DNA from: an uncultured Acidobacteriota bacterium
GTDB lineage: Bacteria > Acidobacteriota > UBA6911
Assembly: GCA_963809485.1 (NCBI GenBank)
Contig: CAWEJX010000012.1
Location: 96,001 to 160,000 of the forward strand
Direction of reading: 5' to 3'
DNA: 64,000 bases
The first letter of the stretch is position 1. Every line of letters begins with the position of its first letter. The notes under the pieces are model-generated. The model was not told the origin of the DNA. It saw only the letters and a list, made by a program, of their open reading frames with translations, and did not search any database. Position numbers and translations under genes: made by a program. Positions 9,794-64,000 of the stretch are shown in pieces.

Positions 9794-11617
9794 ATGGCAA
9801 AACTTAATGCGGTATGGTTGAGATCAGTAATAGGTGTGTTCTTTGTTTGTTCTATAACCATAGTGCATGCAAATACTTTTGCCGCTGAGCCTGAAGCGAA
9901 GGCAGAAGGTTTTTCATTTGAGGTGCTTAATCCGGAGGCCGAGTGGATTATGCCATCCAAAATCTCACTGATTTCTCCACGGCTTAAGGACCTGTCCCAG
10001 AAGAAAATCGGATTGCTCTACGCCGGCAAATCGGGTGGCGAGTTTTTTCTGGATGCATTAGAGGTGCTTCTGAAGAAGAAATATCCTTCGGCCACGATCT
10101 CAAGATATACCCGATGGGTGGATAATGCAGAGGAAAGGATATTAAGGGAAGAAGATGCCTTTGTTTATGCGGTGGGAGATGCCGGCCAGGCAGCCTGGGA
10201 CAGCATAACCTGGACAGTAAAACTGGAAAAACTCGGTAAACCCGGTGTTGCTGTTTTTGGTGACCGCGTCTTATATAATGCAAAAGTGGCCGCTTCCCAT
10301 CTTGGCATGCCGTCGGTTCGTATGGTGCCCCTACCCAGTATGGAATTTTACCCGAACAGGGCAAGCGCAGCGACCATGATGCCCTGTGCCGAAATGGTTC
10401 TGGACGATATAATAAATGCGTTAACCCGCCCGATACAGCCTTCAGAGAAGAATGCCGGTTTGATACCGAAAAAGGCGACACCTGAGTTTGTAAGAATTAC
10501 AGGCGACAGCCTGGAATCCGCCTATGATAAATTCTACCAGCTATTCATGGATAATGACTGGGGCGATGGACTCCCACTGGTCCCTCCCACGCGCTATAAC
10601 GTCGAACAGATGTTAAAGGCAACCAGCCTTTCACCTGATACAAAACTGGGTACAATACAAGTACATGACGGGAGTTCCGACCTAGTGCATGTCACTGTGG
10701 GTAAAGTTGCTGTAAATGCTGTGATGGCCGGCGCTAAACCGGAATATTTCCCGGTTATTATCGCTGCCATGGAGGGGATATCCGATAGGGGATTTTCCAG
10801 TCACGTTTTTTCTTCTGACGCCTCCTTTAACCTTTTAATAGCCGTGTCCGGCCCCATTGCGAAAAAAATCAATATGCACTCCGGAACAGGTTTCCTGGGG
10901 CACGGGTGGCGGGCCAATAATACCATCGGACGCGCTGTAAGACTGTGCATGAACAATATAGGCCATATAAGACCGGGAAAGCTTGATACGGCATTAACCG
11001 GCAGGGCGTCATCCCATACTTTTTATGTGCTGGCTGAAAATGATGTATTAAGTCCCTGGGCTCCATTTCACACTGTGCGAGGCTACCGGGCGGAAGACAG
11101 TTATGTTACAGTGTCCGGCATAGGTCTGGGCGGCGATTTCACTATTTACGGCGGCGGAACAGGAGGCGCCTGGAAAATTGATGATGTTCTGAAAAGCATT
11201 ATTAATAGAATTGCTCCTAACCGCAGTATGTTTGCAGGAACTGGCGTCAGGCCTCTCAACTATATTTTCATACTGAGTCCCGATACGGCACAGGAACTGA
11301 AGAAACGGGGCTATACCAGGCAGAGCCTTCAGGACTACATTATAGACAAAACATCCGTACCCTATGAGCAGTTGAGCAAGGCTGAGATCGAGGGGCTCAA
11401 AAGGAGGCTTTCGGAAAAGTCCGATGCCTGGGGAGGAACCGGGAATATTCCTGAAGACCGCAAACCCGTGTTCCGGGAAAACCTTAAACCCGGAGGCAAA
11501 ATACCTGCTGTCGTTTCACCTGACAATCTTAACATTTTTGTATCGGGTGATGTGTCAGGCTATAATCTTGGAGCGGTTTATCTGCTCGGGGGCCACTCGA
11601 TTAAGCCTGTTCGATAA
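9794..11617 (+). CDS. UGSC-family protein paralog 2, Ala at both redox positions (GDAGQA), signal peptide
   Basis: VLNP, PRLKDL, LEKLGKPGV, WGDGLPLVPPT, AVNAVMAG, RANNTIGRA; AGQA codons at 10181-10192. Confidence 0.87.
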   Translation: MAKLNAVWLRSVIGVFFVCSITIVHANTFAAEPEAKAEGFSFEVLNPEAEWIMPSKISLISPRLKDLSQKKIGLLYAGKSGGEFFLDALEVLLKKKYPSATISRYTRWVDNAEERILREEDAFVYAVGDAGQAAWDSITWTVKLEKLGKPGVAVFGDRVLYNAKVAASHLGMPSVRMVPLPSMEFYPNRASAATMMPCAEMVLDDIINALTRPIQPSEKNAGLIPKKATPEFVRITGDSLESAYDKFYQLFMDNDWGDGLPLVPPTRYNVEQMLKATSLSPDTKLGTIQVHDGSSDLVHVTVGKVAVNAVMAGAKPEYFPVIIAAMEGISDRGFSSHVFSSDASFNLLIAVSGPIAKKINMHSGTGFLGHGWRANNTIGRAVRLCMNNIGHIRPGKLDTALTGRASSHTFYVLAENDVLSPWAPFHTVRGYRAEDSYVTVSGIGLGGDFTIYGGGTGGAWKIDDVLKSIINRIAPNRSMFAGTGVRPLNYIFILSPDTAQELKKRGYTRQSLQDYIIDKTSVPYEQLSKAEIEGLKRRLSEKSDAWGGTGNIPEDRKPVFRENLKPGGKIPAVVSPDNLNIFVSGDVSGYNLGAVYLLGGHSIKPVR

Positions 11618-11668
11618 GGAAGACGGATTATAGAATCAGGTCATAGCATCTCCTCAGTATCCTCCGTA

Positions 11669-11800
11669 TCAAGTCGTTGTAGCTCCGCGTATGACCTTGT
11701 GAATGTATGGCCCTGTCACTTCCTCAAAATTGGCGGTTGAGCCGCAGGGAGTCTGAAAAACAATCACTCCGTCCGCGCCTATGCCGGGCGGATAGGCGGA
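11669..11800 (-). pseudogene. Possible C-terminal remnant of another UGSC-family gene
   Basis: ...IVFQTPCGST...HKVIRGATTT*YG resembles the paralog ends (VWESPTG..TKLIRGAALTKAGR). Confidence 0.3.
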
Positions 11801-11856
11801 AAAGCTGCATCCAGGGCAAAAGGCCGTTTCCGTGCATAATTCAGGTAATATTATTG

Positions 11857-11912
11857 TTGACACACAAAGCGCGATATTTTACGGTTGATCATATTTTTGT
11901 ACGTATACGTAC
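11857..11912 (+). promoter_or_regulatory. sigma70-like promoter with downstream palindromic operator
   Basis: TTGACA (11857)-17 nt-TACGGT; perfect 14-bp palindrome GTACGTATACGTAC at 11899-11912, upstream of the Mo-hydroxylase operon. Confidence 0.55.
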
Positions 11913-12062
11913 TATGATGCGAATGACGCATCGCCACATCGAAACATGCCTGCAAAGAGAACGGAAAATCAAAGATTTCGTCGCAGGTAAATGTCGGTTT
12001 TTTGCAGGACCCTCTTTAGTGTAAGCTGGGCTACTCTGCTCTTGTGAGCGAAAGGGCCAGGA

Positions 12063-14502
12063 ATGACGGCAGCAAATGAAAGTAAAAGGGAAGAGTCAAG
12101 GGACAACTGGCTCTGGCTCTGGAGACCCCCTGAAGGCGGCGATATCGGCCGCCGCGGCCTGCGGCCCAGAGAGGCTCCCGAGAAAGTAACGGGCAGAGCC
12201 GTTTATACCAATGACGTTTATCTTCCGGGAATGCTGTATGTGAAGGTTTACCGTTCTCCGTATGCCCACGCCAGGATCCGGAAGATGGATACCAGCAAAG
12301 CCGAGGCTCTTCCCGGCGTCTGGGCCGTAATCCGATATGATGATCCGGATATCGATTTAAGCGATCCCTATAAACCCGTATTGGGTTTCATGTGGTTTTG
12401 GCATCGGAATTCCATTCTCCCGGATACCGCCGATTATCAGGGCGTCCGAGTAGGAGCGCTGGTAGTTGCCGAAAGCGAGGAAATCTGCGATCAGGCTTTG
12501 AAATTGATCGGGGAAGGCATCGAGTGGGAGCAATTGCCTTTCATCCTGGACCCGGAAAAGGCGATCCAACCCGATGCGCCTCTTTTGCATCCGGAAATAA
12601 ATCCCAAAAACAATATCTGGAAAGATGCAGTGATTCTCAACCAGGGTGACGTGGAGAAGGGATTTGCCTCATCCGACCATGTCATCGAGTTCAGCGAGAT
12701 CAAGAAGGAGGATGATGTCTGGGCCGGCGTGGAGCCCGGATGTATGGTTGTCCAATGGGTTGGCGACAATCTGGAATTCTGGTATCACGGGCAAAGAATC
12801 GGGGTAGATGTAAATTTCATATCAGCTCCCGTGTTCAAAAACGATAAAAAGCAGCCGAAAAAAGTGAAAGCGCACACGCCTTTTAACGGCGCCACCTTCG
12901 GCGGAAATGCCATGGGTCTTGCCTGCTCATCTGGCCAGGTATGCGGCGATAGCAGCCAGGAAGACCATGCGTCCGGTCAAGGTTGTGGATGATTACGCCA
13001 TGAGCTGGGAAGGCAACAGTTTTGAGACCGGAATTGCCCATTACAAGGTGGGCTTTAATAATGATGGAACCATTGTCGCCATCAAGATCGAAATCAACCA
13101 GAAAAACGGCCTTCCGATAACATCCAAGTTTATCGATACCTTGAAGACGCCGAATGTTTATGTGCATGCGATACATTCTTACTGGAGCAGACCCCATGAG
13201 TCCTGCTGGAAGGATGGCGCGGCCAATTGCACCCTTGTCAACCTGATAATCAATAAGGTAGCTGCCTGTTTGAACATGGACCCGATAAAGGTGCAACTGC
13301 TCAACGATGGCGCCAGATGGGCATGATATGGCCTGGCTGGACGAACATGTCAAGAAGCCTTACGGAATGCCCCTCAGGGACAGCCTGAAGGAGGTTGTTG
13401 AAGCCGGCAAGAAAGCTTTCGATTGGGACCGGAAGTGGCATCCGCCGGGCACGCGCAGGCTCCCCAATGGCCGGATGCATGGTGTCGGTTTTTACGCGGT
13501 AGCCTGTTGGCATACCGGCGCCAGAAAGGGCGGCGTCCCAGGCATATCTATGGCGAGAGATGGAACGGCTACCATCTTTTACCGCCGCCCCGATTGCGGC
13601 CAGTCTGCCGCTACCACCTATTGCCAGATTGCGGCTGATGAGATCGGGCTGCGCTATGACGACGTTAAAATTGAGTTCATAGACTACTTCTACTTTGATG
13701 CTGTTCCTCCCGCAGGTTCCATGGGTTCCAGCCTCAATACTTTCGGCCTTGTGGTCAATGCCCGAAAAATGAAGAGAGCTTCTCCTGGAATATGTTGTGA
13801 ACCCTCCCATTGGGGCAATACGCGCCTATGGCAATGCAGTTCCACCGGTACTCATCCCTTTCCAGGGCAAAAAGGTTGAGGAACTGGATATCAGGGACGG
13901 CGTCATCTTTGAGAAAGCCCATCCGGAAAACAAGCTGCCGGTAAGAAGAGTCACCTCATTGCTGCCGCGCGGATTGGAGGCAGCGGCAGAAGGAGGATCC
14001 TTTCTTCGTCGGCGACAAAGCTCCTGAGCTTCCCGAAGTTAAGGAGAAATATACATTGGCCCGGCAATGTGTTTTCGTCGAAGTCGAGGTTGACACCGAA
14101 ACCGGACAGGTTGAGGTTATCAAGCTGGTCCATCCTTATGATGTAGGCCAGTCGCTGAATCCCGATGTGAATGACCAGCAACTCTACGGCGGTGCCTATC
14201 CGGGCGTAGGTGTCTCCGCCACTGAAGCCATCTATTATGATCCGCATACCGGAGTCAGGCTGAATGATAATCTGCTTGGTTATCCTGTTCTGACCATACT
14301 GGATGTCGGCGAGATTGAAGCTCCCATTGTAGAAACGCATCTGGGCTGGAGCGCCTATGGACTTTGCGGCTGCAGCGAAGCCGGTAAGGCGGCCACAGCC
14401 GCAGCGATACTGGTCCCCGCCGTTTATAACGCCATCGGAAAGTGGATTGAGGAAACCCCGGTTACGCCGGAAAGAGTTCTCAGAGCGCTGGGAAAAGCAT
14501 AG
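12063..14502 (+). pseudogene. Xanthine dehydrogenase-family Mo-binding subunit, multiple frameshifts (~12920, ~13315, ~13780-13800, ~14005)
   Basis: KVTGRAVYTND, RSPYAHARI, VEVEVDTETGQV, AVYNAIG, PVTPERVL; the fragments align colinearly with paralog 15176-17591. Confidence 0.85.
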
Positions 14503-14547
14503 CAGAAATTGCCTTCTTTGCAGCTGTTGATAAAGGAGCCACAACTT

Positions 14548-15171
14548 ATGCTGGCAGAAAAAATAAAGAAAAGAGCAAAATCCGCCAAGATATCCAGCGG
14601 AAAACACCCTAAGGGAACTGCCTCTGCCGGCAAGGGCGTCACCGGCACCGGCACCACAGCCATAACTCCCATCGACGGAATACGAGTTCCTTTGACGATC
14701 AAGCCAAGAACGGTGAGGATCAAGGTAAATGGGAGAACATCTAGTCTCCATGTTGAGCCCAATTGGACTCTGCGGGATGTTCTACGGCAAAAGCTGGGAT
14801 TTACGTCGGTAAAGGATTTTTGTGGCGGCTATGGAGCCTGCGGCTCTTGCTGCGTCATCATGGATGGTCGGCCGGTCCTTTCATGCATGACCCTGGCAGT
14901 TGATTGTGACGGGGCTGCAATCGAAACGGCGGAGGGCATCGCCGATGCCAAACATCCTCTGATTGAAGCCTACATTATGAATTGGACGGCTCAGTGCGGC
15001 TATTGCACTCCCGGCTTCCTCGTTACCGCCAAGGTACTGCTGGACCATAATCTCAATCCAACCGTGGAGGAGATCAAAGAAGCCCTGGCAGGAAATCTGT
15101 GTCGTTGCGGCACCTACCCGGCACACATCAAGGCTATCCAGGATGCGGCCAAAGTGCTGAGGGGGGAGTAA
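14548..15171 (+). CDS. XDH-family [2Fe-2S] subunit (no Tat motif)
   Basis: FCGGYGACGSCC, LSC, QCGYCTPG, NLCRCGTY. Confidence 0.93.
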   Translation: MLAEKIKKRAKSAKISSGKHPKGTASAGKGVTGTGTTAITPIDGIRVPLTIKPRTVRIKVNGRTSSLHVEPNWTLRDVLRQKLGFTSVKDFCGGYGACGSCCVIMDGRPVLSCMTLAVDCDGAAIETAEGIADAKHPLIEAYIMNWTAQCGYCTPGFLVTAKVLLDHNLNPTVEEIKEALAGNLCRCGTYPAHIKAIQDAAKVLRGE

Positions 15172-15175
15172 TAAC

Positions 15176-17591
15176 ATGGCAGAGGAATCAATGGAAAAGC
15201 GGCCCTGGCTATGGAGGCCCCCCGAAGGCGGCTATATCGGCCGCAGAGGCTTGCGTCCCAAGGAAGCCCCTGAAAAGGTCTCGGGCAAAGCAGTGTATAC
15301 AAGTGATGTTTACCTCCCGGGAATGCTGTATTTAAAAGCATTACGTTCCCCCTATGCCCACGCCAGGATCAAGAAGATGGATAGCGGCAAAGCGGAATCC
15401 CTCCCGGGCGTCTGGGCTGTGATCCGATACGACGATCCGGATATCGACTTCTCTGATCCCTATGAGCCCGTGATAGGGCGCTCATGGTTTTGGTATCGGA
15501 ACATTCTCCCGGATATTGCCGACTTTGAAGGTGTAAGGCTGGGAGCGATGGTGGTTGCCGAATCTGAGGAGATCTGCGATCAGGCTTTAAAGCTGATTGG
15601 GCGAAGGCATTGAGTGGGAACAATTGCCATTCATTCTGGATCCGGAGGAAGCCGTGAAATCTGGCGCTCCTCTCCTTCACCCGGAAAGAAATCCCAATAG
15701 CAATATCTTCGATGATGTGGTGACCTACAATATTGGTGACGTAGAGAAGGGATTTGCCTCATCCGACCATGTCGTCGAGTTCAAGTCGGTCAAAATTGAG
15801 GATGACGTCTGGGCCGGCGTAGAGCCCGGAAGCATCGTGGCGTGGCTGAAAGATGAGGAACTGGAAGTCTGGTACCACGGACAAAGAATTCCTGCGGACG
15901 TGAATTTTGTTGCAGCGCCCGTATTCAAAAACGATAAAAGCCGGCCCAAAAAAGTGAAGGTTCATACGCCCTATAACGGAGCGACCTTCGGCGGCAATGC
16001 AATGGGATTGGTCGCCCAGCTGTGCCGATATGCAGTCATCGCAGCCAGGAAAACAGGGCGGCCGGTCAAGGTAGTGGACGATTATGCCATGAGCTGGGAA
16101 GGCACCAGCTATGAGACCGGAACAAATCGTTTCAAGATAGGTTTTAATAACGACGGCACCATCGTTTCGATCAAAATTGACACCCTCCAGATAGCCGGCC
16201 ATCCTCTGCCCAGCAAATTTGTAGATGCCATCAAAACCCCCAATATCCTGGTTCATGAAGTGCACAGTTATTGGAGCAAAGCCCACGAGTCCTGCTGGAA
16301 AGACGGCGCCTCCAATTGCGTTCTTTCGAACCTGGTAATTAATAAAGTGGCGGCCCATCTGAATATGGACCCGATACAAGTGCAGCTGCTCAACGATGGC
16401 GCTCACGGGCATGATATGGCCTGGCTGAACGAAAATGTCAAGAAGCCCAACGGAATGCCGCTCAGGGACAGCTTGAAGGAAGTTGTCGAGGCGGGCAAGA
16501 AAGCTTTCGATTGGGACCATAAGTGGCATCCTCCGGGCACACGCAGGCTCCCCAATGGCAGGATGCACGGGGTCGGTTTTTATGCCGTGGGCTGCTGGCA
16601 CACCGGCGCCAGGAAGGGAGGCGTTCCTGGCATATCCCTGGCGAGGGATGGTACGGCCACCATCTACTACCGGCGCACGGATTGCGGCCAGTCCGCTCCT
16701 TCTACCTATTGTCAGATTGCGGCTGATGAAATAGGGCTGCGCTATGAAGACGTCAAAATAGAATTCAAGGATTATTTCTATTTTGATGCGGTTCCCCCCA
16801 TGGGTTCCATGGGCTCCAGTCTCAACACCTATGCTCTGGTGATGAATGCCAGGAGAATGAAGCAGCGCCTTCTGGAATATGCTGTCAAATTTCAAATGGG
16901 AGCCACGAACATCAATTACGGCGACAAGGTTCCGGCAACAGTCTCTCCGTTCCTGGGCAAAAATATTGAAGACCTGGATATCAAAGACGGCGTCATTTTT
17001 GAGAAAGCCCATCCGGAAAACAGGATGCCGGTCCGAAGAGTCGTCTCTTTTCGGCCTCGAGGCCTGGAATCGAATGCGGAAGTTGGAGAGTTCTTTGTCG
17101 GTGAAACTGCAGATGAACCTCCCATGGTGAAGGAACCCTTCAGTATGGGCCGGCAGTGCGTTTTCGTTGAAGTCGAGGTTGACACCGAAACCGGACAGGT
17201 TGAAGTGACCCGACTGGTTCATCCTTACGACGTAGGCCAGTCGCTGAATCCCGATGTGAATGACCAGCAACTCCTTGGCGGGGCCTATTCCGGCGTAGGC
17301 GTCTCCGCCACGGAAGCCATCTACTATGATCCGCATACCGGGGTCAAGCTGAACGACAACCTGCTCGGCTACCCGATGCTGACCATACTGGATATGGGCC
17401 CCATTGAGGCTCCCATCGTGGAAACACACGTGGGATGGAGCGCTTATGGACTTTACGGCTGCAGCGAAGCCGGCAAGGCGGCTACAGCCGCAGCCATACT
17501 GGTCCCGGCCGTTTATAACGCGATCGGCAAGTGGATTGAGGAAACCCCGGTTACGCCGGAAAGAGTCCTTAGAGCGTTGGGAAAAGCATAA
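15176..17591 (+). CDS. XDH-family Mo-binding subunit, one frameshift (~15600)
   Basis: ORFs 15176-15613 and 15597-17591 join into one full-length subunit. Confidence 0.88.
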
Positions 17592-17603
17592 GAGGTGATT
17601 CAA

Positions 17604-19991: not shown

Positions 19992-20011
19992 AAAAAGGAT
20001 ACCAGACCCAG

Positions 20012-20230
20012 ATGCCCAAGCTATTGGTCAAAGTCTTTGGAGATCCCGGGGAGGACACATACGACCTGGAGGATGTGAGATACCTCTTTAATTTTGCCGA
20101 CCAGATTGTTGTGGTTGATGGGCAGAACGTACGCTCCTATGACGAGCTTGCAAAAATCGTTTCCCAGGAAAAATACAGAGATCAGGAGTTTATTGAGGTA
20201 GTGCAGATACCGGCAACTACAGGCGGTTAG
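20012..20230 (+). CDS. Small MoaD/ThiS-like (ubiquitin-like) protein ending in Gly-Gly
   Basis: 72 aa; VVVDG...IEVVQIPATTGG*; RBS AAGGA; operonic. Confidence 0.6.
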   Translation: MPKLLVKVFGDPGEDTYDLEDVRYLFNFADQIVVVDGQNVRSYDELAKIVSQEKYRDQEFIEVVQIPATTGG

Positions 20231-20262
20231 TTTTCCGCATCCTTCCAGAAGGTGAGCAAATA

Positions 20263-51882: not shown

Positions 51883-52147
51883 CCCGTCCATCGATAGCAC
51901 AATGCCTTGAAAGCTTTCGCAAAACCAACGGACCCAAAAACAGATTTTGGGAATTCCGAATGACGAATTCAAAGACTCCCGAAATCGTTAGCGATCAAAA
52001 TAGGCCCGTGCCTTTCCGTTGCCGAAAGCAACACCCTATTTCAAAATCGGGGATTTGCTCAGATAAAACCGCACTCTAAGCGTCGGCTTGCAGGGGAGTA
52101 CGTCTCCCCATATCAACACCAGTATAGGAGGCGAAAGGAGATCAGGC

Positions 52148-54141: not shown

Positions 54142-54221
54142 TGTTCTGAACCAACAACTGTGAAAGATTGATCCGAATCCATTGGAAGGCTTCCGCGAAA
54201 GCAAATAGAGAGGAGGAATCT

Positions 54222-55799
54222 ATGAAAGCCAAAAAACAAAAACGGAATCTCACAAGGAGAGATTTTCTGACAACGGCAGCCGTCAGTGCAGGCGCAACCG
54301 CCCTGGTTGGGGTCGGTCCGGAAGAAGCCGGAGCCGTCCAACAAAGCGATGTCCGAAAATGGGACTACGAGGCGGGGATCGTTATCCTGGGCATGGGCGG
54401 AGCGGGCCTTACCTCAGCTATAACGGCTCACGATCAGGGAGCCGACGTGCTCATGCTCGAGAAGGCGTCGGAAGCTCACGCCGGAGGCAACACCAGGGTA
54501 TCCATGCAGGGGGTTTGGTGTCCCCCAAACCTGGAGGAAGCCCTTACCTATCACAGAGCGCTCAATGGCCGATATCCGGTTCCCGATGAAGTGTTTCATT
54601 CCTATCATGAATACACTACAAAGAGCTTCGAATGGCTGAAAAAAATCGCCGACGGCAAGGTCAACCAGCAACTCAGCACCGGCAAGGGAGAGTACCCCGA
54701 GTTCCCTGGAGCAATGAGCAGCTACATCTGTTCGTCCAAAGAAGGATATGGATACCAGAGGCTTTGGAAGGTGCTCAAGGGCAACGTCGACAAGAGAAAA
54801 ATAAAGATCCTGTATGAAACGCCCGGAGTTGATCTGGTCCAGGATTCCAGGACCCGGGAAATCCGCGGTGTAGTCGCGCAGAGGCAGGGCAAAAAGATCT
54901 ATGTCAAAGCCAAAAAGGCTGTGATCCTGTGCACCGGCGGGTTCGAAAACAATCAGGAGATGATCCGTGATTACCTTCTGCTGCCCTGCGGATATCCGCT
55001 TGGCAGCCCATACAACACCGGAGACGGGATAAGGATGAGCCAAGCCGTAGGCGCCGATCTGTGGCACATGGCTAACATGTGTGGGGTTTCACTCAGCTTT
55101 AGAGCCCCGGGTAACGGCTGGGCCTTTGGCGCCGGATTTTCCATGCCCTCCGGCGGATATATCTTTGTTGCCAGTGACGCGACGAGGTTTGTGAACGAAA
55201 ACCAACCCTCCAGGCACGGCAAGGTGGCCTACCACGGCACCTATGTTCATCTTCCCCTGCCTTTGCCCATACACGCAGTCTTTGATGAAAATGGGAGAAA
55301 GGGCGGCCCGCTTTATCAGACTGAGGAATACTGGTGTTGGTATGCCGTGATTGAAAAGTATAAGTGGAGCGCGGACAGCAGCGCTGAATTGGAAAAGGGC
55401 TGGATCCTTAAGGGCGATACCATAAGGGAGTTGGCCGCAAAAATGGGCAAGGACCCGGATACTTTGGAAAAGACTGTAGCCAAATGGAATCAGTCTTGCG
55501 CGGCAGGGAGCGATTCAGAATTCGGCCGGCCGGCTAAAAGAATGGCTCCCATCAAAAATCCGCCCTACTATGCCATGGAACTGGTGCCCGCCTTCACCAA
55601 TACATTGGGAGGCCCCCGGCACAATCAGCATGCTCAGGTGTTGGACACAAACCGGAAGCCAATCCCGAGACTGTACTCTGCCGGAGAACTGGGTTCCATA
55701 TTCAGTTATCACTACCAGGGAGCCGGAAACTTTGGGGAGTGTGTGGCTTTCGGACGAATCGCCGGTGAACGCGCTTCTGCTGAGAAGCCATGGTCTTAG
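54222..55799 (+). CDS. Tat-exported FAD-dependent oxidoreductase
   Basis: TRRDFL; paralog of 34953-36548; RBS AGGAGG. Confidence 0.9.
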   Translation: MKAKKQKRNLTRRDFLTTAAVSAGATALVGVGPEEAGAVQQSDVRKWDYEAGIVILGMGGAGLTSAITAHDQGADVLMLEKASEAHAGGNTRVSMQGVWCPPNLEEALTYHRALNGRYPVPDEVFHSYHEYTTKSFEWLKKIADGKVNQQLSTGKGEYPEFPGAMSSYICSSKEGYGYQRLWKVLKGNVDKRKIKILYETPGVDLVQDSRTREIRGVVAQRQGKKIYVKAKKAVILCTGGFENNQEMIRDYLLLPCGYPLGSPYNTGDGIRMSQAVGADLWHMANMCGVSLSFRAPGNGWAFGAGFSMPSGGYIFVASDATRFVNENQPSRHGKVAYHGTYVHLPLPLPIHAVFDENGRKGGPLYQTEEYWCWYAVIEKYKWSADSSAELEKGWILKGDTIRELAAKMGKDPDTLEKTVAKWNQSCAAGSDSEFGRPAKRMAPIKNPPYYAMELVPAFTNTLGGPRHNQHAQVLDTNRKPIPRLYSAGELGSIFSYHYQGAGNFGECVAFGRIAGERASAEKPWS

Positions 55800-55856
55800 C
55801 CTTGCCGCGCTCTGTGGCGCTTAAGTGCTATTTACCGGCAGAATGACCCTGCGGTA

Positions 55857-58295
55857 TTGGAAGCGAAGAATCTTTTTGGGAGAACGAAATGGCAGAAAAC
55901 TATCAGCCATGGACTTGGCAAATACCCGAATCCGACGAGAGTATTCAAAAGCAACATGATCCCCCGCCAGGATGCCTATGAGAGGGTGAGCGGCCATGCC
56001 GTTTACACAAGAGACGTTTATCTTCCCGGAATGCTTTACGCGAAGATCCTCACGTCGCCTTACGCTCATGCAAAAATTGTAAGCATGGATACAAGCAGAG
56101 CCGAGGCGCTCATCGGGGTACGGGATATACTCAAATACGAAGACCCGGACGTTGCGAATGAAAATAATACCGGGACCAGTCCAAGCAATGTTCTTGCTCT
56201 TCCCGGCATCAGTGACTTTTACAACCATCCCATGGGAGTTGCGGTGGTCGCTGACACTGAGGAACTGTGCGACCGGGCGCTGCGGCTGATCAAGATGGAA
56301 TGGGAGGAGCGGCCGTTCATCCTGGATATGGAGGAATCACTGAAACCGGATGCTCCAAAGATTTGGAGCGAGGTAGTGCGCGTACGGGAAACGGCAAAGG
56401 GACCTAACGGCCTCGGAACTCGTGAGGAGGAAATCGGTGACGTGCAGAAGGGTTTCGCCGAGGCAGACAAAATCGTGGAGTACACCATTAAAAGGGCGGC
56501 GAATTCGCCGGCGGGTGTCGAGGCCATGGCTTGTGTGGCCCAATGGAGGGGAGAATTCCTGGATATTTGGGTGCATCACCAGAATAACCCGCAATCGAGT
56601 CTCAGTTCTTCCCCCGGCGGGAGGTCTGGCGCTGTTAGAGGAAGGAAGCCGAATCCTGGCTTTACGCACTGGTCCAAGATAACAGTCACATTACCCTACC
56701 AGGGCTCCTGGTTCGGGGGGCTGTCCTGGATCGGTTATTCCGATTTGTTTGTCCGCCTCGCCGTCATACTGGCGAAGAGGGCGGCCGGGAAACCGGTGAA
56801 GCTGCTGTATGACGAAAGTCAGTTCTATCTCAACGGCGAAGAAACCGGCAGCTATAGATGCAAAGTGGGCGCCAAAAAGGATGGCACCATCACGGCCTGC
56901 CATTGGCACATGATCGGGACGAGGAATCCCGGCGTTGATAAGACTCCTGAGTGCACGGGTATACCCAATATCCGAGGCACCATGGAGGCGGCGTGCACCA
57001 ATATGGGCCACATCAGTTGTTTCCGGGATGGTACTTCAGCAAGCATCGGCCACCAGGTTATGTTTGATCGGGTGGCTGCTGAGTTCGGCCTCGATCCGAC
57101 CGAGGTGGCGCTGAAGAACGATGGTTGCCACGGACACTACTGGGATTGGGTCACGCAATACCAGAAAGACAATGGTTTCCCCCAAAGGTGGAGCCTTAAA
57201 GAGGTCCTTGAAAAGGGCAAGAAGGCCATTGACTGGGACCGGAAATGGCACGCGCCCGGAACCAAAAGGCTTGCCAATGGGAAGATGCACGGTATGGGAT
57301 TCATGTCCATTAATGAATGGGCATGCAATGCAGGCAGCAGGCTGGCGTGTTTGATGCTTCGCGACGGCAAAGTCGCCATCGTAGGGATGCGATGCGATCC
57401 GGGAATTGACTCGATATCCGGTTTCCGCCAGTGCGTGGCCGCGGCGATGGGACTGAAATATGAAGATACGGTTGTTCACCAACATCGATCCGACAACAGC
57501 ATGTACCGCTTTTCCAATCCAGGCGGTTCCCAGGGCACGATCACGACCGTTCCTCAATTGATAATTGCCGCCAGGGAGCTAAAACAAAGGATCCTGCAAG
57601 CTGCCATAACGCCTCGGCCCGGCTTCATGATGCGTCCTGCGCAGCCCGCTATGTTCCCGGGCAAAAAGACCGAGGACCTCGATATCAAAGACAGCATGGT
57701 ATTCGAGAAAGCAAATCCAAGTAACAAGAAGCCGGTGATCGAGGTGATGGGCCCCTCATCCGACAGCGACAATTCGGGCATCGTTCATCCCGTTGCCGGC
57801 ACGGTATCGGGATTGACTTCAGACGGGAAGCCGGATCCGACGAACTACATCATGAGCCGGCAAGCCCACTTCATAGAGGTAGAAGTGGATACCGAAACCG
57901 GGCAGGTTGAGATCACCAATGCGGTCTGCGTCAACGACATTGGCCATTGCTTTAATCCTGCAGGCGCCATGGGACAACAGTATGGCGGCGCCGTCATGGC
58001 CTTTGGCCGAAGCGCAACCGAAGAGAAGGTGTTCTGCCCGAACTCCGGAGTGGGGCTTAACTATGATCATATGAACTACCACATTGGAACCATGAATGAC
58101 TTTGCGCCCGTCCAATGCATCCTAAACGAGAGTCATCTGGGATATTCTGCGTACGGCGCGTACGGGATTGGGGAAAACATCGGCGCCAGCCTTTCCGGAA
58201 TCACTTCTTCCGCCATATACAACGCAATAGGCAAATGGGTCCTTGACTTTCCAACGACTCCGGAAAAAGTGCTCAAAGCCCTGGGCAAAATATAA
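55857..58295 (+). CDS. XDH-family Mo-binding subunit (start uncertain)
   Basis: RVSGHAVYTRD, SPYAHAKI, IEVEVDTETG, GIGE, AIYNAIG. Confidence 0.9.
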   Translation: MEAKNLFGRTKWQKTISHGLGKYPNPTRVFKSNMIPRQDAYERVSGHAVYTRDVYLPGMLYAKILTSPYAHAKIVSMDTSRAEALIGVRDILKYEDPDVANENNTGTSPSNVLALPGISDFYNHPMGVAVVADTEELCDRALRLIKMEWEERPFILDMEESLKPDAPKIWSEVVRVRETAKGPNGLGTREEEIGDVQKGFAEADKIVEYTIKRAANSPAGVEAMACVAQWRGEFLDIWVHHQNNPQSSLSSSPGGRSGAVRGRKPNPGFTHWSKITVTLPYQGSWFGGLSWIGYSDLFVRLAVILAKRAAGKPVKLLYDESQFYLNGEETGSYRCKVGAKKDGTITACHWHMIGTRNPGVDKTPECTGIPNIRGTMEAACTNMGHISCFRDGTSASIGHQVMFDRVAAEFGLDPTEVALKNDGCHGHYWDWVTQYQKDNGFPQRWSLKEVLEKGKKAIDWDRKWHAPGTKRLANGKMHGMGFMSINEWACNAGSRLACLMLRDGKVAIVGMRCDPGIDSISGFRQCVAAAMGLKYEDTVVHQHRSDNSMYRFSNPGGSQGTITTVPQLIIAARELKQRILQAAITPRPGFMMRPAQPAMFPGKKTEDLDIKDSMVFEKANPSNKKPVIEVMGPSSDSDNSGIVHPVAGTVSGLTSDGKPDPTNYIMSRQAHFIEVEVDTETGQVEITNAVCVNDIGHCFNPAGAMGQQYGGAVMAFGRSATEEKVFCPNSGVGLNYDHMNYHIGTMNDFAPVQCILNESHLGYSAYGAYGIGENIGASLSGITSSAIYNAIGKWVLDFPTTPEKVLKALGKI

Positions 58296-58363: not shown

Positions 58364-58597
58364 GTCAGGCACCTCCGGCAAAGCCGGAGGTTTGAAAGAT
58401 TGGGACCGATCAAAGCGGTTGGAGGAATTACGCTGGTCTTGAACGCTGACTTACGCGGGCAAAAGCCGATGAGGCGCTCGCCGACCCTCGCCGAACAAAT
58501 CGACGTTTGTCAGCGCTTTTGTCAGCGTATCTCAGCGTTTCAAAATACGGAGCTGTCAAACTCTATGAGTCCCCCGGCAGAGCCGTGAGTTTTACAA
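58364..58597 (+). mobile_element. IS200/IS605-like palindromic element, copy D
   Basis: Both ends present; lies between convergent genes. Confidence 0.75.
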
Positions 58598-58602
58598 TAG
58601 AA

Positions 58603-60264
58603 TTATCTCCCGGCCTTGGTCAGGGTCGCGCCCGTTATCTTTTTCGTAACATGGGCACCTTCTCCGTAATCCCATATCATGGAATACCCCGGCACACCGC
58701 CGGTCACGGCGATGGAAATATTCTTCTCCGGTACTCCGGTTTTTTGGGCAAACCAAGCCTGCAAATCCTTTCTGTTGGTAAAGGATGTTTTCAGCCCTTG
58801 GGCGGCTTCCGGATGAAACCAAAGCCAATAACTGTTGTAAATAGCACCACTGGTATGAGTCATTTCTTTAACCATACCATCCAAAATTGACTGCTCTGTC
58901 CAGGTATCAACTGCTCCACCCCCAACCTTTTGGCCCGAAGCTCCAATGTAGGAGCCGACCTTGGTCACCGTCACAGCGCTGTCTCCCTTCGCAAAACCCT
59001 GGCTCATACTATACGGCTCCCACGGGTTCATCTCCTCATTTTCGGCAAAGGTGTAAAAGGTATGCGCCGACGGCCGGCCGGTCAGGGCCATGTCGTTCAC
59101 TACCGGCCAAGTGTGGCCGATATTGCGTGTTGCCAATCGAACGGATCGCCCAATCGTACTATTGGCTCGCCAGCAATCGCCCAAAAAACCAATCCCGGAA
59201 TTCATGTTGATTTCCTTAGCTATGGGACCGTTCACCATAATGATGAGAGTAAAACCACCCGAAGAACCCATCATGTGCCAGAATCCCATGCTCCACTGTC
59301 CTCCCGCCGAAATAGCCTCCATGGCCGCGATGATCACTGGAAGGTACTCCGGCTTCGCCCCTGCCATCACCGCATTGATAGCAATCTTTTCAATAGTGGC
59401 GATGCCAAATTTCATGGGAATTTTTCCTATTACTTCGCTGGGAGAACGGCTCGTTCCTTTGAGCATCTTGGCAACAGCCTCTCTGGTAGGGGGTACCAGA
59501 GGCAGTCCATCGCTCATCTGGTTATCGAGAAACGACTGGTTGAATTTTTCCTCAGCGTCCGCATAATTGGCGCCAGTAATGCGGATAGGGGGGTAGTCGA
59601 CTGCGGTTTTTTGCTGAGGCTTGGCCTCCTCTTGTGTTAGGGGGGTCGTCAGAGCCTTAACAATGGGATCCAAAGCGGCTTCAGCAAGCGGTCTTACCTC
59701 TTTTACAGTTCCCCGATTCCGGTACCATTTATCGGAAGGTATTGTTACTATCCGGATGTTGGGCATCGACCAATCAGCAGCAGCTGATTTGGCATCTGCA
59801 AGGAATTGCGAGCTGACCAGAAATACTCCAGGCGCTCCATACTTTTCCATCTGCATAGTGCGGCGGGAACCCCACCACGTGCAGGTCCCTCAGTCTCCTA
59901 TGGCAAAAATAAAAGCATCACACTCCTTTGCTATCTTTTGAAACTCTTCTTCCCTTGGATCTGCTGTTGATCCCGCCTTATATTGCGTTAAAATAGTTGC
60001 GGTTGGGTATTTCTGCTTCAGCAGTTCTTCCAGTGCGGTAATTAGATTTCTCACACCAGATTTGCCGTTATTCAGCAAAGCAACCTTCTTACCGGCCAGA
60101 TCAGGAATACGAGGCGTCAGTCCTATGGTTTTCGCCGGCTCAATCACGCCCATGGGGTTGAGCAACTCCAAAGAGACCTTTTCGCTCGCCGGTCTGGCCG
60201 AACGCCCGCCCAGAAATAAACCGGCGGCAAGCAGCAAAGAAACCGACAGCAGTTTATTTTTCAT
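58603..60264 (-). CDS. UGSC-family selenoprotein (553 aa), predicted Sec at TGA 59892-59890, motif GD-U-GT-C
   Basis: In-frame ORFs with an open interval UGTCTWWGSRRTMQMEK; signal peptide. Confidence 0.9.
59851..59884 (-). promoter_or_regulatory. Putative bacterial SECIS
   Basis: CUGCA/UGCAG lower stem; GUGGUGGG-GUU-CCCGCCGC upper stem; loop 19 nt after UGA. Confidence 0.72.
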
Positions 60265-60527: not shown

Positions 60528-62183
60528 TTATCGCCCGGCTTTAGTCATGGTTGCGCCCGTGATCTTTTTTGTGACATGGGCAACCGTCTCGTAGCTCCAC
60601 AACAGGGAATAACCCGGCACACCGCCGGCCACGGTAATGGAAAAATTCTTTTCCGGTATGCCGGTCTTTTGAGCAAACCAACCCTGTACATCCTTGCTGG
60701 TTTTATAGCCCATTTTTGCTAAACCTTGAGCACATTCCGGATGAAACCATACCAGATAGCTTCCTCTGCCTTTGCCGATCGATTTAACCATACCGTCCAA
60801 AATCCCCTGCTCCGTCCAGATAGCGACCGCTCCACCTCCAAACATATTGGCTCCGGATCCACCATAGGAGCCGACCTTGGTCACCGTCACTGTACTGTCC
60901 CCCTTGGCAAAACCCTGGCTTACCTGATAGGGGTCCCAGGGGCTCATCTCTTCATTTTCGGCAAAGGTGTAAAAGGTATGCGGCGACGTCCGCCCGGTCA
61001 GGGCCATGTCGTTCTCCGCCGGCCACGTGTGGCCGATATTGCGCGTCGCCAATCGAACGGACCGTCCAATGGTATTGTTGGCACGCCAGCAATCGCCCAG
61101 GTAACCAATCCCGGAATTCATGTTGATTTCCTTGGCTATAGGACCGTTCACCTGAATGGCAAGAGTAAAGGCACCCGCCGATCCCATCATGTGCCAGAAT
61201 CCCATCCCGGTATACCCTGGCGCCACAAATGCCTCCATCGCCGCGATTACCACCGGAAGGTACTCCGGCTTTGCTCCGGCCATCACCGCGTTGATCGCAA
61301 TCTTTTCAATAGTGGCCGTGCCGGATTTCATGGGGATTTTGCCTATCACTTCGCCCGGAGAACGACTCGTCCCTTTGAGCATCCGGGCAACGGCTTCCCT
61401 GGTCGGGGGCACCAGAGGCAATCCATCGCCCATCTTGTTTTCCAGAAACGACGCGTTGAACTTTTCCACCGCGTCCTCATAACTATCGCCCGTAATGCGA
61501 ACGGGCGGGTATTCGACTGCGGATCTTGTCTGAGGCTTGGCCTCCTCAGCCGTAAGAGGCTTCGTCAGTGCGTCCACAATGGGATTAAAAGCGTCTTCAA
61601 CGAGGGGTCTTAACTCTTGTACCGTTCCCCGAAGCCTGTACCACTTTTCGGAAGGAAATGTTACCATCCGCATGTTGGGCATCAACCAATCAACAGCGGC
61701 TGATTTTGCGTCCTTCAGGAAATTCGAGCTGACCAGAAGTACTCCAGGCGCTCCATACTTTTCCATCTGCATTGTGCGGCGGGCACCCCACCACGTGCAG
61801 GTCCCTCAGTCTCCCATCGCATATACAAAGGCATCGCATCCCTTCGCGATCGACTGAAAATGTTCTTCCTGTGCCTGTGCCTGTATTCCCGGGTTAAATC
61901 CTCGCTGAATAGTTACGCCCGGATACTTCTGCTTCAGCATTTCTTCCAGTATGTCGAATAGCTGGGGCACACCCGGTTTGATGTTATGCACCAGAGCAAT
62001 CTTCTTACCAGAATAATCCGAAAGACGAGGCCTCAGTGCTAAATATGGCTCAGGCTCAATCATGCCCATGGGATTGAGCAGCTCCAAAGTAACCTTTTCG
62101 TTCGCCGGTTTGGCCGTCGAAAATCCGCAAAAAACCAAAGCGGCAGCTAGCAATAAAGAAATCGCTACCAGTTTATTTTTCAT
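60528..62183 (-). CDS. UGSC-family selenoprotein (551 aa), predicted Sec at TGA 61808-61806, motif GD-U-GT-C
   Basis: In-frame ORFs with an open interval UGTCTWWGARRTMQMEK; tandem paralog of 58603-60264. Confidence 0.9.
61767..61800 (-). promoter_or_regulatory. Putative bacterial SECIS
   Basis: Same stems as 59851-59884; differences fall only in the loop (GUG) and internal loop (ACAA). Confidence 0.72.
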
Positions 62184-62244
62184 TCTTTGATCTCCCAATT
62201 CGTTTTGATGTTGATTCCGCTTTCGAACAAATGCTGACTCCGAT

Positions 62245-62533
62245 TAATTACATTGGTAAATCCCCGGCTCTGCCGGGGGACTCAAAGAGTTTGACAGCTC
62301 CGTATTTTGAAACGCTGAGAAACGCTGATAAAAGCGCTGACAAACGCCGATTTGTTCGGCGAGGGTCGGCGAGCAAAAGCCGATGAGGCGCTCCGCGCTG
62401 GCCCCAGCGGGGATCGGAAGCGCCTCATCGGCTTTTGTCCGCGTAAGTCAGCGTTCAAGACCGGCATAACTCCTCCAACCGTTTTGAGCGGTTCCAATCT
62501 TTCAAGCCTCCGTCTATGCCGGAGGTACCTGAC
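62245..62533 (-). mobile_element. IS200/IS605-like palindromic element, copy E (inverted)
   Basis: Reverse complement of copy A, including the ACCAATGTAATTA end and a shorter internal inverted repeat. Confidence 0.75.
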
Positions 62534-62645
62534 TCGCTCCTTCCATTAAGGACGCTTTTTCTCTTGCTCCATCCTCAAGCTATGGGTTAAGGCTCCTATC
62601 TTGAGAATGCCCTTTTCTTCTTTCGAATTTCTTTACGGTCTTCAT
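62534..62645 (-). pseudogene. Deleted/truncated FAD subunit gene
   Basis: MKTVKKF joined directly to KEEKGILKIGAL, then cut at element E. Confidence 0.7.
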
Positions 62646-62658
62646 TTTGTCCAAGCTG

Positions 62659-64000
62659 CTATGCTTTGCCCAGCGCTTCAAGGATTTTGTCAGGGGTGAC
62701 CGGTTCCGAGTCTACGTATTTGCCTATTGCGTTGTATACGGCGGACGGTATGATACAGTGGTTCACAGCACCGCCGCTTTCACCGATGCCGCAAGTCCCA
62801 TAAGGAGCATAGCCCAGGCCGGTCTCCACAAAACGGCAGTCAATGGACGCCACGTCATTCATCACATTCACCGGGTACCCTATCAGGTTCTCGTTAAGCG
62901 CCACCCCTGTTTGTGGATCGTGATACACCGTTTCTTTGCTGGACCTCCCGAGACCCATATAAGCCCCGCCGTACTGCTGGCCGTTAAAGGCATCGGGATT
63001 TATTACCTTGCCTCCGTCGTTCACGCTAACCTGTTTTTTTATTTCAATACCCCCTGTATCAGGATCCACTTCTATTTCCACGAAGTGGGCTTGCCGGACC
63101 ATGCAGTACTCCTCCTCTACACCTCCACGCCCGGTGTGCGCGGGCGGAACGTCCCATACGAACAGATCACGGCTCCACAATGCCGCGACCTGTGCCAGTG
63201 TTTTTTTATTCGCTGGCTTTGCCTTTTCAAAAACGATGCTATCTTTGAGGTCCAATTCTTCAGGCCTTTGATTCGGGAAAAGTGCTGATCTTTGGGGCGG
63301 CAGGCCCAAAGACCGGCTCCGGGGCGGCGGCTGAACCGCTTTTTCAAGAATCAGCTGCTTCATTTTCCGGGCGGCTCTTATCATGGATGGAGTCGTTCCA
63401 TTCATACCCGCGGATCCGCCGCCGGGCGCCGACGCAAAACCGCCCCGGTCATCGTAGGCTCTTATGCGAACATCTTTATAAACGACTCCCAATTCATCGG
63501 CCGCAACCTGACAGTAAGTGGTCTGTGGACACCAGCCTCCATCCTGTTGCGCAGCCAGGATATTAACGGTTCCATCGGAGTTTATCCTTATGGCTGCGCT
63601 GGAATTGCCCATCGTATGAGCCCAACCGATCGTGGAGACATAGCCAATGCCATGATAATTCCCGTTGGGCAGAATTTTGGTTCCTGGCAAGTGCCACTTA
63701 TTATCCCAATCGATTGCAGCCTTCCCCAACTCGTGGACCTCCTTCAAGCTGTCCCTGTCCGAATCAAATCCCTGCGGTTTCTTCACGTGTTCGCTGATGT
63801 ATGCCATGTCCTGCCCGTCGCAGCCGTCATTGATCTCGGCAACCTTGGTTGGATCCATTCCCAGTTCACCGGCGACGTGCTCCCAAACCTGGGCGACAAC
63901 CCGGACCGTGGAACTACCATGCTTGAAGCAGTAACTGGGCGGCCTTGTAAAGGCTGCAAAGTCGCCCGAAATGTATAGGTTGGGAATCCTGGTGCCTTCG
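62659..64000 (-). CDS. XDH-family Mo-binding subunit (5' part outside window)
   Basis: CFKHG...VEIEVDPDTG, GIGE, AVYNAIG; paralog of 30206/46120. Confidence 0.92.
   Translation of the reverse strand, partial: EGTRIPNLYISGDFAAFTRPPSYCFKHGSSTVRVVAQVWEHVAGELGMDPTKVAEINDGCDGQDMAYISEHVKKPQGFDSDRDSLKEVHELGKAAIDWDNKWHLPGTKILPNGNYHGIGYVSTIGWAHTMGNSSAAIRINSDGTVNILAAQQDGGWCPQTTYCQVAADELGVVYKDVRIRAYDDRGGFASAPGGGSAGMNGTTPSMIRAARKMKQLILEKAVQPPPRSRSLGLPPQRSALFPNQRPEELDLKDSIVFEKAKPANKKTLAQVAALWSRDLFVWDVPPAHTGRGGVEEEYCMVRQAHFVEIEVDPDTGGIEIKKQVSVNDGGKVINPDAFNGQQYGGAYMGLGRSSKETVYHDPQTGVALNENLIGYPVNVMNDVASIDCRFVETGLGYAPYGTCGIGESGGAVNHCIIPSAVYNAIGKYVDSEPVTPDKILEALGKA

Follow-up and report, generated by a model that had tools for sequence, protein, structure and literature searches.

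UGSC-type selenoproteins of an uncultured Acidobacteriota-like bacterium: a probable lineage-specific, mostly exported family interleaved with Tat-exported oxidoreductases

Introduction

Do selenoproteins that are encoded beside molybdenum (Mo) hydroxylases, and apparently exported with them, form one dedicated Se/Mo redox system? The question is raised by the 64,000-nucleotide stretch analysed here as a whole (the window), which comes from an uncultured soil or wetland bacterium, Acidobacteriota-like, represented by an assembly resembling a metagenome-assembled genome (MAG) (G000; 6.04 Mb, 21 contigs, 95.7% complete, 7.3% contamination). The window carries eight genes of the UGSC selenoprotein family, three complete subunit sets of the xanthine dehydrogenase (XDH) family (14509-19991, 33225-29226 and 49146-45140) and two more Mo subunit genes (55857-58295 and 62659-64000). 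A sequence-only reading of positions 9794..64000 had proposed that the selenoproteins act with the Mo enzymes outside the cytoplasm. On balance, and without great assurance, we favour another explanation: the window would be part of a catabolic gene island in which two lineage-specific gene expansions are interleaved, namely a mostly exported expansion of a two-domain selenocysteine redox family and expanded oxidoreductases exported by the twin-arginine translocation (Tat) pathway, and it would not represent one dedicated Se/Mo system, since most copies of the family have no Mo enzyme nearby. The earlier interpretation appears to hold for a minority of loci only and is in that sense partly supported.

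UGSC-containing proteins were described as a major selenoprotein family of the Global Ocean Sampling (GOS) data, with 255 selenocysteine against 21 cysteine forms and a likely Trx-like fold, and a UGSC/Unknown_1 fusion appears in Figure S1 of the same 2008 paper (PMC2398784); Unknown_1 might correspond to the C-terminal domain described below. The family was listed as a selenoprotein of unknown function (PMC1976440), and a 2026 review still gives it as uncharacterised while counting it among the most abundant environmental selenoprotein families (PMC13188914). Among the titles and abstract beginnings searched, nothing was found on an expansion of UGSC, on its export or on a UGSC-XDH system.

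Domain architecture and the selenocysteine site

Open reading frames (ORFs) of the window were read with TGA as selenocysteine and then scanned against Pfam and NCBIfam. Seven of the eight family genes match the Pfam family PF24696 (UGSC), with scores of 53-104 bits (cut-off 25), and the eighth (25515-26957) shares with them only the C-terminal domain. Six of the seven proteins given to the NCBIfam equivalog NF041046 matched it at 45-90 bits, which is under its 125-bit cut-off. The common plan is a signal peptide followed by a UGSC domain of ~170 amino acids (aa) and a C-terminal domain (C-domain) of ~350 aa, in window proteins of 551-620 aa. The C-domain is marked by the motifs DGLPxxPPT, AxNAVMAG, NGP, ANxxIGRA and AENE and by invariant Asp, Asn, Arg and Glu residues, which are retained in copies without selenocysteine (U); genes for the C-domain alone also occur.

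A single in-frame TGA is found at the aligned U-x-x-C position in five of the eight window genes (23753, 28736, 39140, 59890 and 61806). Of the three members without U, those at 4356 and 9794 retain neither U nor C, and that at 25515 has no UGSC domain. The eight UGSC-family genes of the sequence-only reading are confirmed as members of one family, and selenocysteine is encoded in five of them. The genome-wide alignment of this column covers 51 of the 58 copies described below; TGA occurs in 41 of them, with the frame open on into the C-domain, and the other ten have Ala, Ser, Gly, Thr or Leu and in no case Cys. Among 64 aligned copies from outside the source genome, 55 have U, four have C and five have another residue. 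Most selenoprotein families have many Cys homologs, and the rarity of Cys forms here (0/10 and 4/64) is unusual for a selenoprotein family.

The machinery and context for decoding UGA were found as well. The genome encodes tRNA-Sec (C19:20948-21046) and selB (391 bits, cut-off 242), and the Pfam UGSC model extends across the TGA codon. In four of the five window genes a hairpin with a small G/U-containing loop begins 8-14 nt past the UGA (51-nt segment), and the fifth forms a hairpin only with 60 nt. Mean minimum free energy after the selenocysteine column was -18.1 kcal/mol for the 41 TGA copies versus -14.0 for the ten non-TGA copies. RNAalifold applied to 33 segments of UGA plus 48 nt returned just three consensus pairs, with hairpins in different registers and no covariation support for a common selenocysteine insertion sequence. 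A contig from RNA libraries (28400-29137; four runs, 90-97% identity, DNA carry-over possible) spans the UGA of gene 27461-29131. Family members are selenocysteine-containing two-domain proteins. A variant of the active site was observed at C4:340996-348037, where three tandem copies have the motif GQSWUGAATS, that is, selenocysteine without a resolving Cys, beside NrfD-like and 4Fe-4S dicluster genes.

Searched against 1.84 billion proteins, a C-domain profile matched 7,193 cluster representatives (50% identity) with E <= 1e-3; the stricter limit of E <= 1e-10 left 4,924. In a word-indexed search, 5,316 of the 8,000 scored candidates proved to be C-domain relatives, and all named ones are called 'hypothetical protein'. 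Most database relatives are ~403-aa pieces beginning after the TGA. Gene callers truncate these genes at UGA, so the family is mostly invisible in annotations. Six relatives of ~710-740 aa (P0121, P0122, P0126, P0130, P0134 and P0154) have two tandem C-domains.

Expansion and predicted export in the source lineage

The source genome contains 58 UGSC matches and 58 C-domain copies, the latter counted at >=140 bits. Comparison with 18 genomes of the same genus and 12 genomes of other families of the class revealed 11-45 UGSC matches in each of the 18 congeners, whereas only two of the 12 others matched, with one small stand-alone form each. The source genome has 31 Mo-subunit matches, compared with 4-24 in genomes of its genus and 2-11 in those of the other families; the ranges for the other families take in G028, an unpublished genome, and are unchanged when it is removed.

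Signal peptides were scored throughout by a Kyte-Doolittle hydrophobicity heuristic, and Tat motifs by a regular expression and inspection by eye. A hydrophobic signal-like N-terminus opens all eight window genes, in agreement with the sequence-only reading. Among the 58 genome copies, 42 have a Sec-type signal, two a twin-arginine signal and ~10 look cytoplasmic, the remainder being fragments. Outside the source genome the picture is different: 76 of 92 N-domain copies have no signal, nine are signal-like, four Tat-like and three cut by a contig end. The family is thus predicted to be mostly exported in the source lineage and cytoplasmic elsewhere. The two Tat-type members are C4:293828 (PRRAFLRD) and C12:202394 (SRRAFFKG), and the former is followed by an aldehyde:ferredoxin-oxidoreductase (AFOR) gene.

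Export by the Tat pathway is also predicted for many oxidoreductases of the genome. Tat motifs occur in 15 of 20 FAD_binding_2 flavoprotein ORFs and in 11 of 21 iron-sulfur (FeS) subunits of the genome, and in the window those read earlier on two [2Fe-2S] subunits (SRREFAV) and two flavoproteins (TRRNFIQ and TRRDFLT) were recovered. The flanks of the family copies (154 ORFs of >=150 aa, searched against Pfam) are mixed, comprising carboxylesterases, esterases, tannase, CoA-transferase III, DHDPS-like proteins, glycyl-radical enzymes, amidohydrolase and AFOR, together with FAD_binding_2 and FAD_oxidored flavoproteins, TonB-type barrels, MFS transporters and regulators. Large paralog sets were observed in the genome (~20 URO-D/MtaA-like ORFs and 24 AFOR, 49 TonB-type barrel, 18 carboxylesterase and 20 FAD_binding_2 matches), a profile such as might be expected of an anaerobe that degrades aromatic or ester-rich organic matter.

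Association with molybdenum hydroxylases

Adjacency in the source genome was defined as a Mo-subunit ORF at <=3 kb, with the chance level taken from 300 random placements. Seven of the 58 copies are adjacent (random placements: 3.2 on average, 7 at most), and four of these seven lie in the window, which makes the window a biased sample. UGSC-Mo adjacency is weak genome-wide and appears to be no more than expected by chance. In a quick maximum-likelihood tree of 52 C-domains the six XDH-adjacent rows need five changes, at least four of them forced by well-supported branches, and shuffles needed 5.8 changes on average, with 82 of 500 needing as few as five; as far as the tree shows, XDH-adjacent copies are scattered over the family in several subfamilies. 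Within the genus, UGSC and XDH copy numbers correlate (Spearman 0.55) because of genome size, and the partial coefficient with genome size removed is 0.30 (p 0.22). The proposed Se/Mo system is supported in part, by predicted co-export in the operon 33225-27461 and by FAD-UGSC adjacency at three further sites, but for 51 of the 58 copies no Mo subunit gene lies at <=3 kb. The pairing is a local, facultative arrangement.

That operon has the unbroken order FeS-Mo-FAD-UGSC, as had been read. Its FeS subunit carries a Tat signal and its selenoprotein a Sec-type signal, both products being predicted to leave the cytoplasm, and a gap of 88-94 nt separates the family gene from the FAD subunit gene, which precedes it in the same orientation. 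Genome-wide, a FAD subunit gene immediately precedes a family gene at four sites: window 27461, C8:382290, C20:505863 and C10:26276. The same order with a decayed FAD gene had been proposed for 64000-60528, and this is supported by faint FAD-gene remnants in the gap 62184-62658 (~475 nt; tblastn E 0.008; 64 nt aligned by blastn with the C8 locus) together with the paralogous locus C8:382290-387301, where Mo-FAD-UGSC is intact and the UGSC gene is 95.6% identical. A possible third recurrence before 60264 proved to be a tandem UGSC duplicate only, with no Mo or FAD remnant. The operon at 45135-49146 duplicates 29221-33225 (FAD gene 99%, FeS gene 97% and Mo gene 85-89% identical), and a third Mo copy (62645-64000) is 70-82% identical. 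Among the duplicates only 29221-33225 retains a UGSC gene directly after an intact FAD gene; downstream of 45140-49146 a frameshifted URO-D-like gene is found instead. In a scan of 27300-33600, promoter and terminator sites were no commoner than in shuffles and none fell in the FAD-UGSC gap. Among the RNA-library matches listed (four runs, 90-97% identity) no contig spans 29137-29226, a result that is uninformative on co-transcription.

The best matches of the window Mo trimer are the 4-hydroxybenzoyl-CoA reductase and XdhA models, all below cut-offs. Scores against the alpha, beta and gamma equivalogs of 4-hydroxybenzoyl-CoA reductase were 241 vs 995, 137 vs 405 and 122 vs 258 bits, and those against PaoA and PaoC were 111 vs 322 and 173 vs 1180 bits. 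For Se_dep_XDH (TIGR03311) the window Mo subunits reached 96 bits against a cut-off of 830; yqeB (C7:172980) and yqeC-like genes (C7:573539 and C8:97461) are present in the genome, off the contig of the window.

Family loci in other phyla were surveyed in a sample of 80 with ±7-kb flanks, drawn from Thermodesulfobacteriota, Dehalococcoidia, Chloroflexota, Betaproteobacteria, Binatia, Methylomirabilota, Actinomycetota and others. UGSC and XDH genes do co-occur in other genomes, as the sequence-only reading expected: a Mo subunit lies within 7 kb at eight of the 80 loci and a full Mo, FeS and FAD set at four. A thioredoxin reductase (TrxR)-like gene is present at eight, SDR at 11, TctC at 11 and SBP_bac_5 at eight; the TrxR-like gene is directly downstream on the same strand at L107, L154, L093 and L114. 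Other thiol-redox neighbours are AhpC-TSA in flanks of the source genome and DSBA, rhodanese and Ni-SOD at some cross-phylum loci. The locus in a Desulfatiglans MAG (L138), one of the eight with a Mo subunit, has a URO-D-like gene beside UGSC-type, FeS, Mo and FAD/GltD genes in that order and mirrors window 9794-21603; its UGSC-type protein has neither signal nor selenocysteine, and its FeS subunit has no Tat motif. For lack of Tat, signal or selenocysteine features, the pairs in L138 and in window 9794-19991 cannot be periplasmic redox partners. Glycyl-radical enzymes are a second recurrent class of neighbour: besides the window gene 4356-6218, which such an enzyme and its activase directly precede, family members have them alongside in MAGs of Desulfatiglans and Chloroflexi (L082 and L112).

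Structural model and proposed mechanism

An AlphaFold2 model of the mature full-length product of 27461-29131, built with 43 paralogs, has a pLDDT of 91.0 and a pTM of 0.92. Foldseek against PDB gave weak flavodoxin-like matches to the N-domain only (best 1tik, E 1e-4, TMt 0.45), and thioredoxin is absent from the top 50 structure matches of this domain. In the model the UGSC N-domain is flavodoxin-like, with U-x-x-C at a strand-to-helix turn.

Most likely the selenoproteins would be redox enzymes in their own right. The U-x-x-C centre would cycle between selenol/thiol and selenenyl-sulfide, as suggested by the motif, the dominance of selenocysteine and the TrxR-like neighbour at 8/80 loci, and would be recharged by a partner. 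The C-domain would hold the substrate, a role suggested by the invariant residues kept even without selenocysteine and by the C-domain-only genes. For the putatively cytoplasmic relatives in other phyla a TrxR-like flavoprotein is often encoded next door; in the source lineage the family would have been relocated outside the cytoplasm and then multiplied. Exported copies would be unable to use NAD(P)H, and their reductant might be the single DsbD-type system (one DsbD_TM gene, C20:547421, 182 bits) or neighbouring exported dehydrogenases. In the three or four Mo-FAD-UGSC operons the gene order suggests that the FAD subunit may recharge the selenoprotein as its local reductant, or it may serve a neighbouring pathway step. 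The chemistry would, by analogy, be akin to that of GrdB/PrdB-type selenocysteine reductases.

A more specific proposal, held only tentatively and rather unlikely in our judgement, is that a cytoplasmic selenocysteine reductase family was re-targeted to the periplasm and grew to ~40-60 genes whose selenenyl-sulfides are recharged not by NAD(P)H and TrxR but by Tat-exported dehydrogenases (the XDH-type FAD subunit, flavoproteins and AFOR), in a selenol-based extracytoplasmic electron relay that feeds many substrate-specific reductases. If this were true, the genome would also encode one of the largest selenoproteomes so far described in bacteria, a single family contributing no fewer than 41 selenocysteine genes.

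Evaluation of alternative explanations

Several points weigh against the explanation by two interleaved expansions. The Mo-subunit enrichment is ~2-fold and only the most extreme of the 300 placements matched it; with the cross-phylum UGSC-XDH cluster, this makes some real coupling possible. Ten of 51 copies have no selenocysteine, so not all members can depend on a redox cycle. Neither Pfam nor NCBIfam gave a match to the C-domain (UGSC was the sole family matched by the isolated N- and C-domains at Pfam E <= 10), and it has no PDB sequence relative, sequence and profile searches of PDB with the C-domain protein, A2 and A1 having returned nothing but a designed repeat protein (E 0.069). The assembly is MAG-like, with the contamination given above and several single-base frameshifts, and the signal-peptide calls depend on a crude hydrophobicity rule.

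Dedicated partnership of the UGSC selenoproteins with the Tat-exported Mo hydroxylases in a single periplasmic Se/Mo module, whether by taking electrons from the FAD subunit, by giving electrons to it or by catalysing the next catabolic step, is unlikely in our view. It would account for the operon 33225-27461, whose same-strand gap has no terminator-like site, for the same order at C8:382290 and C20:505863 and its variant at C10:26276, for the cross-phylum loci with a Mo subunit (8/80) or a full set (4/80), including the Desulfatiglans cluster, and for the need of exported copies, cut off from NAD(P)H and TrxR, for another reductant. However, it leaves aside the 51 of 58 copies without a nearby Mo subunit and the origin of the Mo-adjacent copies from several subfamilies; copy numbers within the genus correlate only via genome size, and among the RNA contigs listed none crosses the FAD-UGSC junction. 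Elsewhere, most copies (76/92) are without a signal and TrxR-like (8/80) or SDR (11/80) neighbours are as frequent, and where the XDH gene is beside the family gene in L138 and window 9794-19991 it has no Tat signal, the UGSC-type protein of L138 being without selenocysteine or signal as well. The earlier suggestion that UGSC proteins deliver Se or S for the maturation of a labile Se/S ligand on the Mo cofactor of neighbouring hydroxylases draws on the fact that some XDH-family enzymes need labile Se and on the marker genes for Se-dependent Mo hydroxylases in the genome, but we regard it as highly improbable, because those markers, yqeB and yqeC-like, are far from the window and already fill the role of Se donor. 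Peptide-bound selenocysteine is, to our knowledge, not known as a Se donor, most family copies and homologous loci have no nearby XDH, and the window Mo subunits score far below the Se_dep_XDH cut-off (96 vs 830 bits).

Decidedly unlikely, too, is a role as general periplasmic thiol/selenol-disulfide oxidoreductases or antioxidants (Dsb/Prx-like) reduced by a DsbD-type system, in which the C-domain would bind a client or ligand and the neighbours would be incidental. The U-x-x-C motif, the DsbD_TM gene and the thiol-redox neighbours (AhpC-TSA, DSBA, rhodanese and Ni-SOD) agree with such a role, and published reviews group UGSC with Trx-like redox selenoproteins. Yet a set of 58 paralogs at ~30% identity, embedded in catabolic clusters, is more readily reconciled with diversification of substrates than with a housekeeping duty, the N-domain is modelled as flavodoxin-like with thioredoxin absent from its top 50 matches, and the invariant C-domain residues suggest a small-molecule site. 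That the TGA codons are true stops, each separating a short N-terminal ORF from a C-terminal gene, would explain why public gene calls split these genes and why most homologs are ~403-aa pieces starting past the TGA. Against it, 41 of 51 paralogs, and 55 of 64 homologs from other genomes, share the TGA at a single aligned column of the active site, where the rest have sense codons; the Pfam model spans the TGA, the selenocysteine machinery is present and the RNA-library contig crosses it, which leaves this possibility extremely improbable.

Comparison with known systems

Aldehyde oxidoreductases of the PaoABC type are exported by the Tat pathway via the FeS subunit. The Tat-type window enzymes are alike in having FeS, FAD and Mo subunits with a twin-arginine motif on FeS only, and the alignment to the PaoA model runs through the signal region; they differ in scores far under the PaoA and PaoC equivalog cut-offs and in the gene order FeS-Mo-FAD. 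Glycine and D-proline reductases (GrdB/PrdB) have selenocysteine in U-x-x-C and a thioredoxin system encoded in the operon. The UGSC family shares the U-x-x-C selenocysteine and, in several homologous loci, a TrxR-type gene next door, whereas no pyruvoyl subunit was seen in our analysis and most copies here are predicted to be exported. Four N-domains and four C-domains gave no match to PF07355 (GRDB) at E <= 10, and the GRDB model found one weak, unrelated match in the source genome. Anaerobes that respire organic compounds have expanded families of Tat-exported flavin and molybdopterin reductases; many Tat flavoproteins and Tat FeS subunits per genome are likewise found here, but the Mo enzymes are of the XDH family and not of the DMSO-reductase family.

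With the described UGSC family (PF24696, NF041046) the proteins share the Pfam match, selenocysteine in U-x-x-C and very few Cys homologs. Classical members are small single-domain proteins (~150-200 aa), whereas those described here are ~560-620-aa fusions below the NCBIfam equivalog cut-off, mostly predicted to be exported and present in 58 copies per genome. A Trx-like fold was guessed in PMC2398784, while the model obtained here is flavodoxin-like. This study adds to the picture of UGSC a large fused partner domain that is found in 7,193 clusters and for which the Pfam, NCBIfam and PDB libraries searched yielded no relative, and the recurrent TrxR-like neighbour makes the idea of a redox cycle testable. 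The 41 selenocysteine genes of one family are a lower bound on the selenoproteome of the source genome; published record selenoproteomes number 46 genes in an isolate (PMC12013277) and 57 and 63 genes in a symbiont and a MAG (PMC13188914). The Se/Mo system would be at most a special case of a much larger UGSC family, and this large, mostly exported selenoprotein family is a more interesting object than the Se/Mo pairing.

Features of the window

The features identified in the window are listed in Table 1. Gene 4356-6218 falls outside the range of the sequence-only reading. Besides the family and XDH genes, the window contains two Tat-signal flavoproteins, three exported beta-helix-like genes, URO-D-like genes, an acyl-CoA dehydrogenase and a PQQ_2 propeller.

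Table 1. Coordinates, strand and assignment of features in the window.
Position	Strand	Feature	Remarks
634-2949, 3170-4099		Glycyl-radical enzyme and activase	Upstream of UGSC-family gene 4356-6218
4356-6218	+	UGSC-family two-domain protein	No selenocysteine or Cys at U-x-x-C; hydrophobic N-terminus; PF24696 61.5 bits
9794-11617	+	UGSC-family two-domain protein	Signal peptide; no selenocysteine (GDAGQAAW); PF24696 53 bits
12063-14146	+	XDH-family Mo subunit, decayed frameshifted tandem copy	Broken frames; 72-86% nt identity to 15176-17591
14509-15171	+	[2Fe-2S] subunit, XDH family	No twin-arginine motif; NCBIfam matches
15176-17591	+	XDH-family Mo subunit	Frame split by an additional G within a G-run near 15597
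17595-19991	+	FAD subunit fused to GltD-like NAD(P)H/FAD domain	798 aa; NF009410 434 bits and XdhB-type matches; GltD-like fusion indicates a cytoplasmic enzyme
20263-21603	+	URO-D/MtaA-like protein	One of ~20 genome paralogs; ortholog flanks the UGSC-XDH cluster in L138
23390-25177	+	UGSC-family selenoprotein	Signal peptide; UGA 23753-23755 followed by hairpin (z -3.2); PF24696 97.6 bits
25515-26957	-	Signal peptide and C-domain only	Likely start 26849; C-domain HMM 456 bits; no UGSC domain and no Pfam or NCBIfam match
27461-29131	-	UGSC-family selenoprotein (motif UGSC)	Signal peptide; UGA 28736-28738
29226-30191	-	FAD subunit (CoxM/XdhB/PaoB type)	Of XDH-family enzyme, predicted Tat-exported
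30206-32551	-	Mo (MoCo-binding) subunit, XDH family	
32563-33225	-	[2Fe-2S] subunit, PaoA-like	Twin-arginine signal SRREFAV
34953-36548	-	Tat-signal flavoprotein (TRRNFIQ)	FAD_binding_2; KstD/flavocytochrome-c-like
38786-40504	+	UGSC-family selenoprotein (HUSTC)	Signal peptide; UGA 39140-39142; hairpin with GGUC loop
41072-43087	+	Exported protein, possibly right-handed beta-helix	One of 11 paralogs; sub-threshold Pfam match
43721-44560		URO-D-like paralog	Weak NCBIfam matches
45140-49146	-	Second FeS(Tat)-Mo-FAD operon	Segmental duplicate of 29226-33225; FeS gene 48484-49146 (SRREFAV)
49186-51162	-	Exported beta-helix-like protein	Directly upstream of FeS gene
52088-58295	+	Beta-helix-like gene (split frame), Tat flavoprotein, Mo subunit	Flavoprotein 54168-55799 (TRRDFLT); Mo subunit 55857-58295
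58603-60264	-	UGSC-family selenoprotein	Signal peptide; UGA 59890-59892; tandem duplicate of 60528-62183
60528-62183	-	UGSC-family selenoprotein	Signal peptide; UGA 61806-61808
62184-62658	-	Gap with faint remnants of deleted FAD-subunit gene	
62659-64000	-	Third paralogous Mo subunit gene, 3' part	Continues past window end

Beta-helix genes had been said to lead two Mo operons. Their placement before the FeS gene at 49146 and before the pair 54168-58295 is as described, but the fold comes from sub-threshold Pfam matches (Beta_helix 21.6 vs 25.9 bits; chondroitinase B 16-19 vs 24), and a PDB search found no relative for the beta-helix-like protein or for a 324-aa exported protein of the window. 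The Mo subunit 55857-58295 follows a Tat flavoprotein with no FeS or FAD genes beside it, an odd composition for the XDH family.

Frameshift-split genes occur at 15597, 52467-52642, 44364-44560 and 12063-14146 and may be assembly errors, not true decay; the extra G near 15597 may likewise be a real mutation or an assembly error. No Rfam family reached gathering level within the window. An intergenic repeat of ~130-380 nt is present in 3-4 copies with 66-92% identity (21597-21973, 33639-33801, 43243-43458 and 58389-58605); it has no Rfam match, adjoins gene ends, decayed genes and duplication borders, and may be a small mobile or repetitive extragenic palindromic (REP)-like element. A remnant of the family C-domain (35-46 aa, DGLPVIPP...) was found at 43521-43625 (+), surrounded by repeats and a URO-D-like gene with a frameshift; relative to the second Mo operon it lies downstream, on the opposite strand.

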